DNA of 64,000 nucleotides from sequence record PP400782; one strand, 5' to 3'. This stretch comes from Escherichia phage FL31. Positions 655-56,310 of this stretch are shown one piece after another (position 1 is the first letter of the stretch; each line of letters starts with the position of its first letter). Below the pieces are notes generated by a model. That model made no database searches. It was given only the letters and a program-made list of their open reading frames with translations, and was not told the origin of the DNA. The position numbers and the translations under genes are program-made.

Positions 655-683
655 CTAGATTTCCTCAATTATCCATAGGAGCA

Positions 684-2058: not shown

Positions 2059-2088
2059 AATTTTCTCCTCGTATTGTTGATAAAAGCC

Positions 2089-8658: not shown

Positions 8659-10354
<1,696 letters not shown>

Positions 10355-10416
10355 TTTATTCTCCTTCACTTTTGATTTGATAGGGCTACTATAACATAAC
10401 CCTATCTGATTATACA

Positions 10417-10809
10417 CTACTTTTTAAAAGTTTTTTGCAAAAGTTTGATGATTTCGTCGACGTTGGTTTCATCTACGATACAATGGATTTTTGTTACACC
10501 TAAAGTTATACCTTCGTTAGTAGGTTGAGGCTTTACTAAATCTACCTCAGTAAAGTATTTGAACTCGTCATGATAAATCTCAAAATAAGTTTCAATTTCA
10601 CCACCGGCAGAACATACCGTACCGTCTTCCATAGTTACACTTACTACGTTTGACGTATCGCTATCATAATCAGGTTCCATTCCGTTTACAACAAAACTAG
10701 GCCCGTGGAGTTCAATCAATTTTAACATCTTAGCGTTATTGTGTGGTGCTTCTTGAACAAAGTCGTCTTTAAATAAAGGGTTAATGATATAAGATTTTCC
10801 GATTTTCAT
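10417..10809 (-). CDS. hypothetical protein (130 aa)
   Basis: ORF with GAGGAAAT SD. Confidence 0.45.
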   Translation of the reverse strand: MKIGKSYIINPLFKDDFVQEAPHNNAKMLKLIELHGPSFVVNGMEPDYDSDTSNVVSVTMEDGTVCSAGGEIETYFEIYHDEFKYFTEVDLVKPQPTNEGITLGVTKIHCIVDETNVDEIIKLLQKTFKK

Positions 10810-10838
10810 TTTGATTTCCTCATGTTGTTGATAGGTCT

Positions 10839-10867
10839 ATACTAACACATCCAGGTAAGAAGTAAAC
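10839..10867 (-). promoter_or_regulatory. early promoter-like element (-35 GTTTAC, -10 TAGTAT) with AGACCTATCAA box
   Basis: Minus strand GTTTACttcttacctggatgtgtTAGTATagacctatcaa. Confidence 0.4.
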
Positions 10868-10892
10868 AACTTTTTCGGCAATTTACAGATAC

Positions 10893-10916
10893 TCAAAAGG
10901 GAGACCGAAGTCTCCC
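10893..10916 (-). terminator. rho-independent terminator after gene 32
   Basis: Minus strand gggagac-UUCG-gtctccc followed by a U run, 7 nt past the gene 32 stop. Confidence 0.65.
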
Positions 10917-25006: not shown

Positions 25007-25052
25007 AACGTTTTATTCATTCCATTTGGTTGATATGAGTATAGTACCATTA

Positions 25053-25214
25053 TCAGTGTTGATTGTAAACAGCTTTTTCTACACTTTTAACGTAATCAGT
25101 GTAGTCTTCCTGTTCATACGAGTGTAAGGCCAAGAACGTGGCTAATAGTTCATTATAGACTAAAGCCTCACGCTCACGTTCTGCCTCTACTACGTTCTGA
25201 AGATTATGGCTCAT
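25053..25214 (-). CDS. hypothetical protein (~53 aa; start at MSHN with AAGGAA SD)
   Basis: ORF; stop/start overlap TGAtATG with upstream gene. Confidence 0.3.
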   Translation of the reverse strand: MSHNLQNVVEAEREREALVYNELLATFLALHSYEQEDYTDYVKSVEKAVYNQH

Positions 25215-26867: not shown

Positions 26868-27500
26868 TCACAGTACGTTAGTTACAAGGGTAATGATTTC
26901 TTTGGACACATTAGGGAAGTCAATGTAAGTATATTTACCACCGATCTTAATCTTAACATCATTTTCAAGAGAAGTAAACAGCTTTGATTCAGTTTCTGAC
27001 ATGTTGTATGCAAAGATTCTAAGAGCGCCATCTCGACGAATTTCGATCTGACGAATACCTAGAACTCGTTTTGCAAATCGAACTTCCAAGTTACTACGGT
27101 TTTCACCAATTTCCTTAACTTCAACTTTATCTTTAATATTTTCAAAAACAAAGTTTGCTAGTTCATGCATTTCAGGAGTAACTCCACGTGCTTTTCTAGT
27201 GTTACGTTTCTGAAGAAGTTCTGGAGCATTTTCTTGAGCAAATAGGTCTGCAGCTTTTTGGATAATATTCATTGCTTCGCCTGTTGCTACAAGTCCATCA
27301 CCAGATTTTTCGACTAAACCTTTCTTAATCAATACACCAATGTTAGAGTTAACAACCGATGCATTGTATTCTGCTTCCAGAGCTTCACGGACATTGGCAG
27401 CAGTGGTGAAGTTGTTCTTAATGATATAAACCATTATTGCAGCAGTTTTTTCATTCAGAACGTTTTCAGAAGCTTTGATGATGTAAGTAACTTTAGACAT
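26868..27500 (-). CDS. motA: middle-promoter transcription activator MotA
   Basis: 210 aa; MSKVTYIIKASENVLNEKTAAI...NSNIGVLIKKGLVEKSGDGL matches recalled T4 MotA. Confidence 0.9.
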   Translation of the reverse strand: MSKVTYIIKASENVLNEKTAAIMVYIIKNNFTTAANVREALEAEYNASVVNSNIGVLIKKGLVEKSGDGLVATGEAMNIIQKAADLFAQENAPELLQKRNTRKARGVTPEMHELANFVFENIKDKVEVKEIGENRSNLEVRFAKRVLGIRQIEIRRDGALRIFAYNMSETESKLFTSLENDVKIKIGGKYTYIDFPNVSKEIITLVTNVL

Positions 27501-27539
27501 TTTATTTCTCCAATTTGGTTGTTTTGTTTTGATAGGTCT

Positions 27540-27568
27540 ATAATATCATGTTTGAAGCACATGTAAAC
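27540..27568 (-). promoter_or_regulatory. early promoter-like element for motA (-35 GTTTAC, -10 TATTAT) with AGACCTATCAA box
   Basis: Minus strand GTTTACatgtgcttcaaacatgaTATTATagacctatcaaaac. Confidence 0.45.
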
Positions 27569-27577
27569 TGTTTTGTG

Positions 27578-27609
27578 AGAAAAATGCACAAAAGGGAGCC
27601 GAAGCTCCC
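27578..27609 (-). terminator. rho-independent terminator after gene 52
   Basis: Minus strand gggagc-UUCG-gctccc followed by UUUUGUGCAUUUUU. Confidence 0.6.
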
Positions 27610-27685
27610 TAATCATGTTTGTCCAACCAATACAGCCAAATCACTAGTGCAGCTATTGCACCGAGAAATCCTAAGGCTAGGGCAC

Positions 27686-29877: not shown

Positions 29878-30078
29878 TTATTCGGCCATATCAGAACGTT
29901 CAAAAAGCTCTTCAACAGTTAAACATTCAGTGTCATCTTCAATAAAGAATCGAGTCCAACACGTTGGGGCGATACAGTTATGAGTTTGTCCGGCGATAGA
30001 AGCTACACGAATAAGCTGCTGACCATTATTCAGAACAAATTTTTCACCAATTTCAACATCTTTAAAAAGCTTAGCCAT
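29878..30078 (-). CDS. hypothetical protein (66 aa)
   Basis: ORF. Confidence 0.4.
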   Translation of the reverse strand: MAKLFKDVEIGEKFVLNNGQQLIRVASIAGQTHNCIAPTCWTRFFIEDDTECLTVEELFERSDMAE

Positions 30079-30328
30079 TTTGTGTTCCTCATGTTTCAGT
30101 AAGACTACTATACCATAATCCTACCGTGATGTAAACAATTAAATTACATTAAAATATGTTAAAGCCAACCATGTTCCAGTGAACGAACATGCAATGTAAA
30201 AAACCGTATCACAAATTGTTCTTAGTACAATAAGAAGTGCATTTTTCATAAGTACCTCAACACAATTGAAAATATTATACAAATCATTGGGATACTAAGC
30301 AACCATATTCCTATCCACATTTTAGAGC

Positions 30329-30592: not shown

Positions 30593-30618
30593 GATGTTAT
30601 CCTCTTTTAGATAGGACT

Positions 30619-30648
30619 ACTATATCATAGTCCTACTTAGTTGTAAAC
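30619..30648 (-). promoter_or_regulatory. early promoter-like element (-35 GTTTAC, -10 TATAGT) with AGTCCTATC box
   Basis: Minus strand GTTTACaactaagtaggactatgaTATAGTagtcctatc. Confidence 0.4.
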
Positions 30649-38979: not shown

Positions 38980-39206
38980 TAGTAAGTTTCCTTCCAATAA
39001 GTTGTACCGTTTTCAGTGATTTCACGGAAGATACCATAGATAGGCATTTCATCACCAAGTTTTTCGTAAACGTAAACCACTTCGGTGTAGCATAAAAATC
39101 CGGTCCAGCTTTTCTGTACAACAACTAAATCAGGATTAAACAGAACATCTTCAAACTCATCGATGTTTGAATCAGTAGTTACGTTTTTAATGATTTGACG
39201 TTTCAT
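38979..39206 (-). CDS. hypothetical protein (75 aa)
   Basis: ORF with AGAGGAG SD. Confidence 0.4.
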
Positions 39207-39234
39207 AATATTCTCCTCTTGTTTTGATAGGTCT

Positions 39235-39263
39235 ATAGTATCATAGACTATAGTTGTTGTACA
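39235..39263 (-). promoter_or_regulatory. early promoter-like element (-35 TGTACA, -10 TACTAT) with AGACCTATCAA box
   Basis: Minus strand TGTACAacaactatagtctatgaTACTATagacctatcaaaac. Confidence 0.4.
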
Positions 39264-39788
39264 TCATTTTAGCAAAATAAAATCAACTTGTTCTGCCAAT
39301 GAACGTCTAAACATTAATTGACAACTTCCGAGGATGAAATCAGGTGCTTCATAGACCGCGATGTAGTATCCTTTAGCTTTCAAGAGTTCAACATCTACCT
39401 GGTCATCAAACCATGCATAAACCGCGTCAACGCTTTCAAATCCAAAATAGAACCCTTGAGCCCAATCTTCACTCAATTCAAATGTGTACTCAATTCTATG
39501 GTATCTTAAGATATTTTGTTCAAGAAGTTTGTCTTCATTTACTGTAGGACGATTAGGGACATTATAGTTGTCGCCGTGATGGTAGAAGTTACCTGAGAGT
39601 ATTCCATGCTTATCAAGGAACTCCCATGTTTCTTCAGAGTTGTCAGTGCCGGACCAACCATAAGGTGAGCGAGGTTCTTTATTCCAAGAGGTTTCCCAAA
39701 TTCTGACGGCTTTACCGTCTTCGATAGCAATTCCTGGTAATGATTCACGTTGAGTACAAAAACTACGTTCTACGCGGTAAACTAACAT
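39264..39788 (-). CDS. hypothetical protein (174 aa)
   Basis: ORF with GAGGAG SD. Confidence 0.45.
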   Translation of the reverse strand: MLVYRVERSFCTQRESLPGIAIEDGKAVRIWETSWNKEPRSPYGWSGTDNSEETWEFLDKHGILSGNFYHHGDNYNVPNRPTVNEDKLLEQNILRYHRIEYTFELSEDWAQGFYFGFESVDAVYAWFDDQVDVELLKAKGYYIAVYEAPDFILGSCQLMFRRSLAEQVDFILLK

Positions 39789-39814
39789 ATTATTCTCCTC
39801 TGGTTGATATGGTT

Positions 39815-39843
39815 ATAATATCAAAACCAGAGGAGAAGTAAAC
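39815..39843 (-). promoter_or_regulatory. early promoter-like element (-35 GTTTAC, -10 TATTAT) nested in a 12-bp inverted repeat that includes the downstream SD
   Basis: Minus strand GTTTACttctcctctggttttgaTATTATaaccatatcaaccagaggagaataatATG. Confidence 0.45.
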
Positions 39844-41289: not shown

Positions 41290-41355
41290 AATGTTTTTCC
41301 TGTTTGGTTAGGATAGAAAGATTATACTCCAACCGTCCTTGGTTGTAAACTGGTT

Positions 41356-44413: not shown

Positions 44414-44462
44414 AATATTTTCCTCTGTCTTACGGACGTTAGGTCATTTAGCTGATAAGTTT

Positions 44463-45174: not shown

Positions 45175-45202
45175 TTAGGTTTCTCCTGTGGTTGATAAAG
45201 GT

Positions 45203-45813: not shown

Positions 45814-45840
45814 GATAGACCTCCATTTAAAGATAAGCCT

Positions 45841-47292: not shown

Positions 47293-47356
47293 ATTGTTCT
47301 CCTCTTGAGTAAGTAAGAATATCTTAACACAGTTTTTAGCGGTTGTAAACTGTAGA

Positions 47357-47386
47357 AACAAAAAAAGGAATCCCGAAGGATTCCTT
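47357..47386 (-). terminator. rho-independent terminator after soc
   Basis: Minus strand aaggaaucc-UUCG-ggauuccuu followed by UUUUUUU. Confidence 0.7.
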
Positions 47387-51231: not shown

Positions 51232-51517
51232 CTGTGATTTCGGTTACGATATCTTTGTTATCGAAATTAGGGTCACAATACAAAACATAGTTGTACTGCA
51301 TAATACCGCCAGACTTAAGTTGTTCAACAACTTTATTAACCATGTTAGGACGGTCTCGTTTAGTGATGTTCATGATATCAGAGAAGATTTGTTGTTCAAC
51401 CTCTTCTTGATTTGCAGTCATTGACCACTCACAGAGGTCTTTATCATAACCTGCCGTAACTGGAGCCGGTGCACATGATACTGCAAGTAAGATTGCTGCC
51501 AATGATAACTTTTTCAT
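51224..51517 (-). CDS. hypothetical secreted/periplasmic protein (97 aa)
   Basis: N-terminal signal peptide MKKLSLAAILLAVSCAPAPVTA. Confidence 0.45.
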   Translation of the reverse strand: MKKLSLAAILLAVSCAPAPVTAGYDKDLCEWSMTANQEEVEQQIFSDIMNITKRDRPNMVNKVVEQLKSGGIMQYNYVLYCDPNFDNKDIVTEITGE

Positions 51518-51546
51518 TTTAACTCCTTAGTTGATTTGATAGGACT

Positions 51547-51576
51547 ACTATACTATAGTCCATCTATAATGTAAAC
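51547..51576 (-). promoter_or_regulatory. early promoter-like element (-35 GTTTAC, -10 TATAGT) with AGTCCTATCAAA box
   Basis: Minus strand GTTTACattatagatggactatagTATAGTagtcctatcaaatc. Confidence 0.4.
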
Positions 51577-51829: not shown

Positions 51830-51890
51830 GTTAATTTCCTCTTGATTTGTTATGTTTATAGTATCTTGTTTTAACTTTGGTGTAAACCAA

Positions 51891-52259: not shown

Positions 52260-52287
52260 TTCAATTTCCTCTGTAGTTGATAGAAAG

Positions 52288-52833: not shown

Positions 52834-52859
52834 TTTGTTCTCCAGTAGTTGATAGGTCT

Positions 52860-52888
52860 ATAATAACACAACTACTGGAGAAGTAAAC
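52860..52888 (-). promoter_or_regulatory. early promoter-like element (-35 GTTTAC, -10 TATTAT) nested in an inverted repeat that includes the downstream SD
   Basis: Minus strand GTTTACttctccagtagttgtgtTATTATagacctatcaactactggagaacaaaATG. Confidence 0.45.
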
Positions 52889-53263
52889 TTAAAAACGTAA
52901 TTTAGATACATCTGCGTTGATTTCGGTTTGGTTTGCGTCGTATGCAATTAAACGAACCGCTTTAGATGGGTCATTCAATGCATAGAAATGATGGAACATT
53001 GCTCGAACGATATCACCATTTACGAGTTCTACCTGGATAGGAGAACCTTTTTCGAGTTGGAAATGTTCATAAGCTTTGATGGTTCGCAGATAATCAAGTT
53101 TTTGATTTCCGGCTCCAACAATTTGTACGATACGTTTGCCCATGTTTTCCATACGAGATACAATAGTTTTAGGAGCAAGAATAACGTAGGTTGCCAGCGG
53201 AGAAACTACTTCAACAGTTGTGTTTTCGGTGATTGCAGTAAAAATTGCTTGAGACATATTCAT
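52889..53263 (-). CDS. hypothetical protein (124 aa)
   Basis: ORF with AAGAGGAAAA SD. Confidence 0.45.
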   Translation of the reverse strand: MNMSQAIFTAITENTTVEVVSPLATYVILAPKTIVSRMENMGKRIVQIVGAGNQKLDYLRTIKAYEHFQLEKGSPIQVELVNGDIVRAMFHHFYALNDPSKAVRLIAYDANQTEINADVSKLRF

Positions 53264-53292
53264 AATGTTTTCCTCTTGGTTTGTGTAAGTAC

Positions 53293-53322
53293 ATCATATC
53301 ATGCCTAGAGGAAGATGTAAAC
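53293..53322 (-). promoter_or_regulatory. early promoter-like element (-35 GTTTAC, -10 TATGAT)
   Basis: Minus strand GTTTACatcttcctctaggcatgaTATGAT. Confidence 0.4.
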
Positions 53323-53345
53323 CCCGAAAGGAGACCGAAGTCTCC
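53320..53345 (-). terminator. UUCG hairpin/terminator after gene 41
   Basis: Minus strand ggagac-UUCG-gucucc followed by UUUCGGGGUUUAC (moderate U tract). Confidence 0.45.
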
Positions 53346-55166: not shown

Positions 55167-56310
55167 GGTCGTTTTCTATATCTGCTGCAGACGGAGCATC
55201 AGAAGTTTTAACCGGAACTTTAGTTGTTGCTTTGCAATTAATAAGGTCGTTAACAGCGTCATCAACTTCTTTAATAGAAGAGATAGCACCTAGTTTATAT
55301 TTAGTTTCAATTGCATCTCGGAAAGGTTTGTGTTTAAACAACGGTCCCCAGAATTCTACACAATCAGTAGCTTTAGCACGCCATGATTTTTCTTCACGAA
55401 TCATTTCGCCTGTTTCTTCGTCAAGGAATTCACGAGCATACCACCCGGCTTTAGGCTTAACTACAAAACCAATTTCAGTTGCCATTTCTAACAAGCCACT
55501 GAATGGGTCAATACCGCCATCAAAATTAACCGTGATCGGGAAAGTAGATTTCTCTTTAACTGTACGAGATTTTTCTGCTTTCAACGTGAAGTCATAACCG
55601 GTCAATTCAGTGCCATCTTTAACCTGACGTTTAGAGATAAAGAATACAGTGTTAGCCGAGTAAAGAATACCTGTACCGCCGCCCATAATCTCTTTAGGAT
55701 ACAATCCGCCAATTTCCATTGCTGTATGGTTGATTGCAACACATGGAATATCTTTAATAGTCAGATAAGGAGTCACAATGCGGAACAGAGATTTAAGTGC
55801 CTTAGCACGAGACATATCACCTACGACTTTCTCGTTCAACGCATCTTCGGTTTCTTTCTTAGATGCAGTATTACCGATTGAATCGATAAAGATAATAACT
55901 TTATCACCGCGTTCAATCGCGTCAAGCTGATTAGTCATATCAACTTTAAGTTGTTCGACAGATTGAATAGGAGTATGAACTACACGGTCTAAATCAACAC
56001 CCATTGAACGAAAATAAGATTCCGAAGCACCAAATTCTGAATCATAGAACAAACAAATTGCATCTTTATATTTCTTCATATATGCTGCAACCATGGTCAG
56101 TCCAAACAATGTTTTAAAATGTTTAGAAGGTGCAGCAAAAATAGTCAAGCCTGATTGCAATCCTGCATTCAGTGCACCACCTAGTGCAATATTCAACATT
56201 GGAATACGAGTAGGGACTTCATCACGATTATTAAACAACTTAGACTTAGTCAAGTCTGCAGTCATTTTAGAAGTAGAAGCTTTAATCAGACGAGATTTTA
56301 GATCAGACAT
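55138..56310 (-). CDS. uvsX: UvsX recombinase (RecA-like)
   Basis: 390 aa; MSDLKSRLIKASTSK...GLTIFAAPSKHFKT...REFLDEETGEMIREEKSWRAK matches recalled T4 UvsX. Confidence 0.95.
   Translation of the reverse strand: MSDLKSRLIKASTSKMTADLTKSKLFNNRDEVPTRIPMLNIALGGALNAGLQSGLTIFAAPSKHFKTLFGLTMVAAYMKKYKDAICLFYDSEFGASESYFRSMGVDLDRVVHTPIQSVEQLKVDMTNQLDAIERGDKVIIFIDSIGNTASKKETEDALNEKVVGDMSRAKALKSLFRIVTPYLTIKDIPCVAINHTAMEIGGLYPKEIMGGGTGILYSANTVFFISKRQVKDGTELTGYDFTLKAEKSRTVKEKSTFPITVNFDGGIDPFSGLLEMATEIGFVVKPKAGWYAREFLDEETGEMIREEKSWRAKATDCVEFWGPLFKHKPFRDAIETKYKLGAISSIKEVDDAVNDLINCKATTKVPVKTSDAPSAADIENDLDEMEDFDE

Follow-up and report, generated by a model that had tools for sequence, protein, structure and literature searches.

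The early promoters in the DNA analysed here, 64,000 nucleotides of Escherichia phage FL31 (record PP400782; hereafter the window), carry a conserved box, AG(A/T)CCTATCAA, at a fixed register just past the -10 hexamer. The comparisons of sequence set out below suggest that this box is probably the start-site module of the T4-type early promoter (Pe), acting via the host sigma-70 polymerase. It is an already described component of a known promoter class, and published promoter logos and the papers on PeSL cassettes cover the feature. The preliminary description of the box, which was drawn from at least seven promoter-like elements, did not recognise it as an established feature that T4-type early promoters and PeSL cassettes have throughout the family.

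The window is from a Mosigvirus (RB69-like T4-type coliphages), with 97-98% identity to genomes of this group over the 4-kb piece around the box that was compared. In the annotated neighbour AV116 the genes follow the order of the T4 early region on the minus strand: pseT, alc, rnlA, nrdAB, td, frd, 32, 59, 33, dsbA, rnh. The G+C content of the window is about 37-38%.

Seven promoters with the box

Seven promoters contain the box exactly or with a single mismatch. They are listed here with the box coordinates first; the start sites are predicted from homology, as described below.

10828..10838, minus strand: exact box AGACCTATCAA (-6 to +5) of the frd.2-homologue promoter; -35 GTTTAC at 10862-10867, -10 TAGTAT at 10839-10844, predicted start A at 10832, start codon at 10809.
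10377..10387, minus strand: one-mismatch variant AGCCCTATCAA, frd.1-homologue promoter; -35 GTGTAT at 10412-10417, -10 TATAGT at 10388-10393, predicted start 10381, start codon at 10354; an 11-bp stem-loop at 10379-10406 has the box as its 3' arm.
27529..27539, minus strand: exact box AGACCTATCAA, motA-homologue promoter; -35 GTTTAC at 27563-27568, -10 TATTAT at 27540-27545, predicted start 27533, start codon at 27500.
30608..30618, minus strand: one-mismatch variant AGTCCTATCTA, before an 87-aa ORF without T4 match; -35 GTTTAC at 30643-30648, -10 TATAGT at 30619-30624, predicted start 30612; a 10-bp stem-loop at 30611-30636 has the box as its 3' arm.
39224..39234, minus strand: exact box AGACCTATCAA, cef-homologue promoter; -35 ATGTAC at 39259-39264, adjoining the end of the upstream ORF (39264), -10 TACTAT at 39235-39240, predicted start 39228, start codon at 39206.
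51536..51546, minus strand: exact box AGTCCTATCAA, promoter of the sp (spackle) homologue; -35 GTTTAC at 51571-51576, -10 TATAGT at 51547-51552, predicted start 51540, start codon at 51517; a stem-loop at 51538-51564 has the box as its 3' arm.
52849..52859, minus strand: exact box AGACCTATCAA, before a 105-aa ORF without T4 match; -35 GTTTAC at 52883-52888, -10 TATTAT at 52860-52865, predicted start 52853; the spacer pairs with the Shine-Dalgarno region in a 14-bp stem at 52838-52882, whose loop contains the box.

The exact form AGWCCTATCAA was found five times in the window, always on the minus strand, compared with 0.08 copies expected from dinucleotide-preserving shuffles. None of 100 shuffles reached five copies, and no shuffle held more than one. 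Matches with one mismatch were also observed away from promoters, at 55933 (plus strand) and 57106 (minus strand). When up to two mismatches were allowed there was no enrichment genome-wide (45 copies, 38.6 expected). The 7-mer YTATCAA is common in the window (56 copies), so the specificity of the motif comes from its fixed register in promoters and not from the rarity of its short core.

All seven box promoters lie in gaps of approximately 55-113 bp between minus-strand ORFs. Five of them stand before homologues of T4 frd.2, frd.1, motA, cef and sp, and the other two before ORFs without a T4 match. The -10 hexamer directly abuts the box in every case and reads TAGTAT, TATTAT, TACTAT or TATAGT. 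It is preceded by TGn in six of the seven (the exception is at 51552), and a -35 element stands 17-18 nt above it in all of them, as GTTTAC in five and as ATGTAC and GTGTAT in the other two. The seven minus-strand elements of the preliminary description were thus all recovered, with coordinates right within 1 nt; the -10 sequence that was given for them, TA(n)TAT, was roughly right, but three of the seven have TATAGT.

Pairwise identity among the seven copies was 0.91 in the box, 0.39 upstream, 0.34 in the spacer and 0.39-0.40 downstream, and the longest run common to any of the copies was 19 nt. Because the flanks are so dissimilar and the shared runs so short, the conservation is position-specific. 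The low identity of the flanks (34-40%) also rules out a recent duplication of whole cassettes. An artefact of chance or composition might be suspected in an AT-rich window, where a generic sigma-70 scan returned 69 matches against 61.6 expected from shuffles, and therefore did not discriminate (a generic terminator scan was likewise not discriminating). However, the excess of exact copies and the fixed register rule out such an artefact, as does the recurrence of the box in other genera; its probability is negligible.

Consensus and register across the early promoters

Early promoters were located with a scan for a GTTTAC-type -35, a spacer of 16-18 nt, a TAnnnT hexamer, and a downstream Shine-Dalgarno sequence with a start codon. 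The scan yielded 18 promoters on the minus strand, which is the coding strand, and one spurious match on the plus strand. The 18 minus-strand promoters and the promoter at 25046 make up a set of 19 that is independent of the box; with two further promoters that were ascertained by the box the set comprises 21. The genes behind the early promoters of the window include homologues of frd.2, frd.1, motA, cef, sp, alc, rnlA, srd, modB and imm, among others. Weaker boxes were observed at the following positions.

25030..25040, minus strand: ACTCATATCAA (9/11), after GTTTAC-N18-TACTAT; no obvious Shine-Dalgarno sequence and start codon within 60 nt of this promoter (25030-25070, minus strand).
39804..39814, minus strand: AACCATATCAA (8/11), motB.2-homologue promoter; a 13-bp stem (39793-39837) sequesters the Shine-Dalgarno sequence.
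52277..52287, minus strand: CTTTCTATCAA (8/11), imm.1-homologue promoter.
51847..51857, minus strand: AAACATAACAA (8/11), imm-homologue promoter.
44452..44462, minus strand: AAACTTATCAG (8/11), srd-homologue promoter.
45192..45202, minus strand: ACCTTTATCAA (7/11), promoter of a modB-like gene.
45830..45840, minus strand: AGGCTTATCTT (7/11), promoter of a second modB-like (mod-family) gene.
30096..30106, minus strand: AGTCTTACTGA (7/11), ndd.1-homologue promoter.
672..682, minus strand: GCTCCTATGGA (7/11), before a 99-aa ORF.
41310..41320, minus strand: CTTTCTATCCT (6/11), motB.1-homologue promoter.
47310..47320, minus strand: ATTCTTACTTA (6/11), mrh.2-homologue promoter.
2077..2088, minus strand: alc-homologue promoter, in which the core TTATCAA is shifted 1 nt downstream (GGCTTTTATCAA).

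The consensus at the fixed register is A g w C y T A T C a A, from -6 to +5. Among the 19 box-independent promoters the mean match to the box was 7.7/11 at the exact register, and fell to 2.7-4.6 when the register was shifted by 1-4 nt. A score of at least 7/11 was reached by 14 of the 19, as compared with 1.6% of all window positions, and a score of at least 8/11 by 10 of the 19, as compared with 0.3%. The box is a general property of the early promoters of this phage and is broader than first described, extending to most of them and not only to the original seven. Used at its fixed register, it makes the prediction of early promoters more precise in T4-like genomes, in which a plain sigma-70 scan does no better than on shuffled sequence.

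Column counts for the set of 21 were A 15 at -6, G 10 at -5, C 16 at -3, C or T 17 at -2 and T 20 at -1 on the upstream side, and A 20 at +1, T 15 at +2, C 16 at +3 and A 18 at +5 on the transcribed side. The information at -3, -1, +1 and +3 amounts to 1.3-1.5 bits, comparable to the positions of the -35 element. Conservation continues beyond +5, with A or C at +6 and +8 and A at +10, and G is almost absent until the Shine-Dalgarno sequence at about +11: only 7 of the 189 positions from +2 to +10 are G (p = 1e-10). The start codon follows at +20 to +28 in most of the early promoters. Upstream of the box, T at -12, A at -11 and T at -7 occur in 21 of 21 promoters, since these bases of the TAnnnT hexamer were search criteria and are hence fixed. 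The extended -10 is represented by T at -15 and G at -14, each in 18 of 21, and an A-rich, UP-like region by A in 11-16 of the 21 at each position from -44 to -40.

These counts bear on what had been proposed for the box initially. A search for enrichment at promoters had been suggested as its test, and the box is strongly enriched there. It was also said to stand around the start site and to be tighter than a plain sigma-70 consensus needs, and both points hold. As a conserved initially transcribed sequence it was described correctly for the first five transcribed bases, but the box also covers the discriminator (-6 to -1).

The position of the transcription start was taken from T4. The T4 GenBank record names an early promoter Pe133295, and coordinate 133295 is the seventh base after the -10 TATTAT of a GTTTAC promoter between cd.3 and cd.2; this base corresponds to the A of ATCAA in the box. 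In a library of approximately 16,000 promoters, the modal start for E. coli RNA polymerase was likewise 7 bp after the -10. We infer by homology that +1 is the A of ATCAA, the seventh nucleotide after the -10, and that the box extends from -6 to +5. The box can then be used to predict the 5' ends of immediate-early mRNAs. A literature search found no genome-wide map of T4 start sites.

The box in other phages and promoter classes

The early promoters of T4, scanned outside the late genes at 77.5-120 kb, contain a looser form of the box. Many read TACTAT-ACAACTATCAACTAC or TACTAT-TACCCTATCAAC, and ACAACTATCAAC is also seen. T4 has CTATCAAC at the same register, together with one exact AGACCTATCAA in the denV promoter, which reads TACTAT-AGACCTATCAACTACAGGAG. 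The information at -3, -1, +1 and +3 is about 0.5-0.6 bits in T4, whereas it is 1.3-1.5 bits in this Mosigvirus. A scan of IMG/VR for GTTTAC-N17/18-TANNNT-AGWCCTATCAA returned 82 loci and 93 different promoter contexts; the T4-like genomes in question measure about 121-172 kb, and single genomes have many copies. The early promoters of RB49 (Krischvirus) have a TTGACA -35, and in several of them the start region reads CnCATCAAA. In Aeromonas phage 44RR (Biquartavirus), half of the 14 promoters have (A)GTCCCATCAAATC or a sequence very similar to it, with the start box AGTCCCATCAAATC. Related start boxes are present across several genera of T4-like phages.

Some strong coliphage promoters outside this family begin in a similar way. 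T7 A1, lambda PL and T5 N25 start with A after pyrimidines, with transcripts that begin AUC (T7 A1 and lambda PL) or AUA (T5 N25), and T5 N25 has AGA directly after TATAAT. These are single promoters, whereas the T4-like family has 20-60 promoters per genome with the same 8-11 nt.

The box was absent from 52 T4 middle promoters with published start sites. The mean best-register box score was 4.2 for T4 middle promoters and 6.4 for T4 early promoters (Mann-Whitney p = 1e-6). Conversely, the MotA box TGCTT at about -30, the mark of a T4 middle promoter, was absent from the seven promoters of the window, which have GTTTAC-type -35 elements. These comparisons show the box to be specific to early, as opposed to middle, promoters.

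The promoters of the window agree with the T4 Pe (Hinton 2010; Nolan et al. 2006) in GTTTAC at -36 to -31, the A-rich upstream region, TGn and the TAnnnT -10, in their place on the coding strand before early genes, and in a consensus that reaches past the sigma-70 elements and includes C at -3 to -1. T4 early promoters were described as a combination of UP, -35, TGn and -10 elements with additional consensus regions (Hinton 2010). Early-promoter logos numbered to the start site were published for RB69, RB49, 44RR and others, with C preferred at -3 to -1 in these three phages (Nolan et al. 2006). The parts of the published early-promoter text that were available mention this preference for C only, and not the ATCAA start. 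A second body of work concerns PeSL, a unit made up of an AT-rich tract, early promoter, stem-loop, Shine-Dalgarno sequence and start codon that is repeated in T4-like genomes (Arbiol et al. 2010; Comeau et al. 2014). PeSL units are compact intergenic cassettes, many per genome, like those of the window, and their stem-loop often lies over the -10 or in the spacer (G-T pairs allowed). The PeSL papers differ in their emphasis on the stem-loop and on recombination, and do not single out the -6 to +5 box.

Proposed role of the box

As a start-site module, the box would act in cis through unmodified host sigma-70 RNA polymerase. The module would run from the discriminator (-6) through the start site (+1) to +5, and would sit in compact promoter-leader cassettes that fill the 55-113 bp gaps before immediate-early genes. 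The A and G at -6 and -5 may make a favourable contact with sigma region 1.2, and the pyrimidines C-Y-T at -3 to -1, followed by A, would set a single purine start 7 nt past the -10. With one T, no G and a high share of A and C, the initial transcript AUCAAC(n)AC would avoid the T/G pause motifs that slow promoter escape. Because all four recognition elements (UP element, -35, TGn and -10) are combined in T4-type early promoters, escape, rather than binding, would be limiting there. A box tuned for escape would also explain why activator-dependent middle promoters lack it. The same bases would provide an unstructured 10-nt leader before the Shine-Dalgarno sequence. The most likely role of the box would be an ordinary promoter-strength effect.

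It was previously reported that the first 10 transcribed bases can alter promoter output over approximately three orders of magnitude, and that slow escape is linked to spaced T's and TG motifs near +5/+6 and to T-rich or TG motifs in +2 to +10 (Heyduk and Heyduk 2018). The same study counts against the proposal insofar as T at +2 went with slow escape in the lacUV5 context (Heyduk and Heyduk 2018). Three further points against it are that C at -3 and +3 and A at +5 answer to no obvious demand from generic RNA polymerase preferences, that conservation among phages that infect different hosts is compatible with a phage-encoded reader or a role of the RNA as well, and that the absence from middle promoters could be regulatory rather than kinetic. 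The core-recognition element of the polymerase also prefers G at +2, where the box has T.

An RNA-level role would mean that immediate-early mRNAs share a common, unstructured and G-free 5' end, AUCAAC(n)AC, with the DNA half of the box merely setting the start. Such an end would help ribosomes to load on very short leaders, stabilise the 5' end or keep NAD capping low. This fits the conservation that runs past +5, the near-absence of G up to the Shine-Dalgarno sequence, the closeness of the start codon in most promoters, and the occurrence of several T4 genes with one common long leader and differing spacers. It also fits the bases around the start, which depart from the NAD-capping consensus HRRASWW. 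The box has Y at -2 and -1, W at +2 and S at +3, and so follows the anti-consensus (GYYAWSS) at these four positions, from which A-start transcripts should be almost entirely triphosphate-ended. On the other hand, -3 and -1, which are among the most conserved positions apart from +1, are not transcribed; the leaders past +6 differ widely among the seven copies (identity 0.39); and such a 5' end has no known reader. We regard a primarily RNA-level role as unlikely.

Stem-loops at the early promoters

In many early promoters a segment of the spacer is the reverse complement of the sequence just past the -10. Spacer and downstream sequence can form Watson-Crick stems of 7 bp or more in 5 of 21 promoters of the window and in 13 of 40 promoters of T4; in a control that combined each spacer with the downstream regions of other promoters, the shares were 4.5% (window) and 2.1% (T4). 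The stem-loops occur in two registers. In the first, the 3' arm begins at -6 and the box itself is the arm (10379-10406, 30611-30636 and 51538-51564, minus strand); these stems have 10-11 bp, a loop that contains most of the -10, and energies of -11.5 to -16.3 kcal/mol. In the second, the 3' arm lies over the Shine-Dalgarno sequence and the box is in the loop, as at 52838-52882 (-21.7 kcal/mol, z = -5.5) and 39793-39837 (-23.9 kcal/mol, z = -7.3), both on the minus strand. The arms covary between promoters and phages, for example CTCCTGTAG / CTACAGGAG, CTCCAGTAG / CTACTGGAG and CTCCATTAG / CTAATGGAG, or GATAGGACT / AGTCCTATC in coliphages versus GATGGGACT / AGTCCCATC in 44RR. The arrangement in which the stem-loop overlaps the -10 is also found in T4, RB49 and 44RR, with compensatory changes.

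A clear stem-loop was present in only four of the seven box promoters, three with the box as an arm and one with the box in the loop. The other three showed no clear stem-loop around the box; the promoter at 27545 has only a short hairpin inside the spacer. Since the box is an arm in only three of the seven, the stem-loop does not explain the box. The stem-loops at the early promoters of the window are the PeSL stem-loops. They would form only in read-through transcripts from upstream, where they would attenuate transcription or conceal the ribosome site, as has been described for T4 e, soc, 49 and I-TevI.

Three spacers are complementary to their own Shine-Dalgarno region, at 52838-52882, 39793-39837 and 53263-53322 (minus strand), with stems of 14, 13 and 7 bp, respectively. 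The arms of these stems covary across IMG/VR relatives. In read-through transcripts from upstream such pairing may mask the ribosome site, which would stay exposed in transcripts from the proximal promoter.

The mirrored arms are also relevant to the idea that the box is an operator, bound by a phage or host protein that, for instance, shuts off the early promoters 2-3 min after infection. The box overlaps the start site, is early-specific and is deeply conserved, in some promoters it is mirrored in the spacer to give a palindrome around the -10, and reviews call the mechanism of early-promoter shut-off not completely understood. However, the mirrored arms covary freely (T4 ipII, ipI and mobD.2), which points to nucleic-acid structure and not to a sequence-specific dimer site, and the YTATCAA core is common outside promoters. 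The consensus for IHF (WATCAANNNNTTR) is matched by only half of its length: the TTR that should stand 4 nt past ATCAA is absent, with A at +10 in 16 of 21 promoters and G at +11 in 12 of 21. An operator is therefore highly improbable, and the separate factor-binding site that had been suggested at the outset found nothing in its support, the short core being common elsewhere and the IHF-like half-site lacking its TTR half. In a wider form, the C-Y-T-A-T-C-A-A box would be a cis target for selective action on early units, either as a shut-off operator or as a pppAUCAA 5' tag, which we consider very unlikely. A direct test is nevertheless worthwhile, given boxes in both coliphages and an Aeromonas phage, their absence from middle promoters and a shut-off that is not completely understood.

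Two other resemblances were considered and rejected. The second half of the DnaA-box consensus is not conserved (compared by eye). A -10-like, sigma-dependent pause element does not fit either, as TATCAA or CATCAA is without the final T and the first base is C in RB49 and 44RR.

Promoter cassettes and their surroundings

Another possible source of uniformity is recombination or gene conversion of PeSL cassettes, with the box as a crossover site or as its result. The PeSL papers place crossovers in the stretch that separates the -10 from the Shine-Dalgarno sequence or ATG, promoter-overlapping stem-loops are significantly enriched, and a cassette of the window, that of the ndd.1 homologue, resembles T4 cassettes before alt.-3 and alc. 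Yet identical runs reach at most 19 nt between dissimilar flanks, so that conservation is position-specific and not tract-like, related boxes (CATCAA, AGTCCCATCAAATC) persist in RB49 and 44RR, which are too diverged to recombine, and T4 cassettes with identical flanks have hypervariable spacers. We think such a homology patch quite improbable as an explanation of the box.

The ndd.1-homologue promoter and leader (30078-30136, minus strand), TATAGT AGTCTTACTGAAACATGAGGAACACAAAATG, is near-identical to the T4 cassettes at 123069 and 136312, which stand before two unrelated genes, alt.-3 and alc. This suggests that promoter cassettes may move between genes. Five T4 early promoters (27056, 55360, 70672, 163649 and 167062) have near-identical upstream flanks. 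Three of the five have the full common leader ACAACTATCAAC(TAC)TGATACGGATTTGGAGAAT(A/G)AAATG and the other two its first 21 nt or so; the centre of the spacer is completely different between the copies.

G+C-rich hairpins with T runs (e.g. gggagcttcggctccctttt) were observed just upstream of early promoters at approximately 27590-27625, 10890-10915 and 53320-53345 (minus strand) and at 47365-47386 (both strands). They look like intrinsic terminators that may insulate each cassette, and the element at 47365-47386 reads as a terminator on either strand. The 44RR record annotates a repeated intergenic sequence with six copies in the genome (2818-2888 and 30052-30163 of the record piece), which is unrelated to the box. 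The leader of the srd homologue is unusually long, with the start codon at +44, and contains the 13-nt stretch AACGTCCGTAAGA at about 44428-44440 (minus strand). The 11-nt core of this stretch, CGTCCGTAAGA, also occurs in the T4 srd leader and in IMG/VR relatives, within leaders that otherwise differ.
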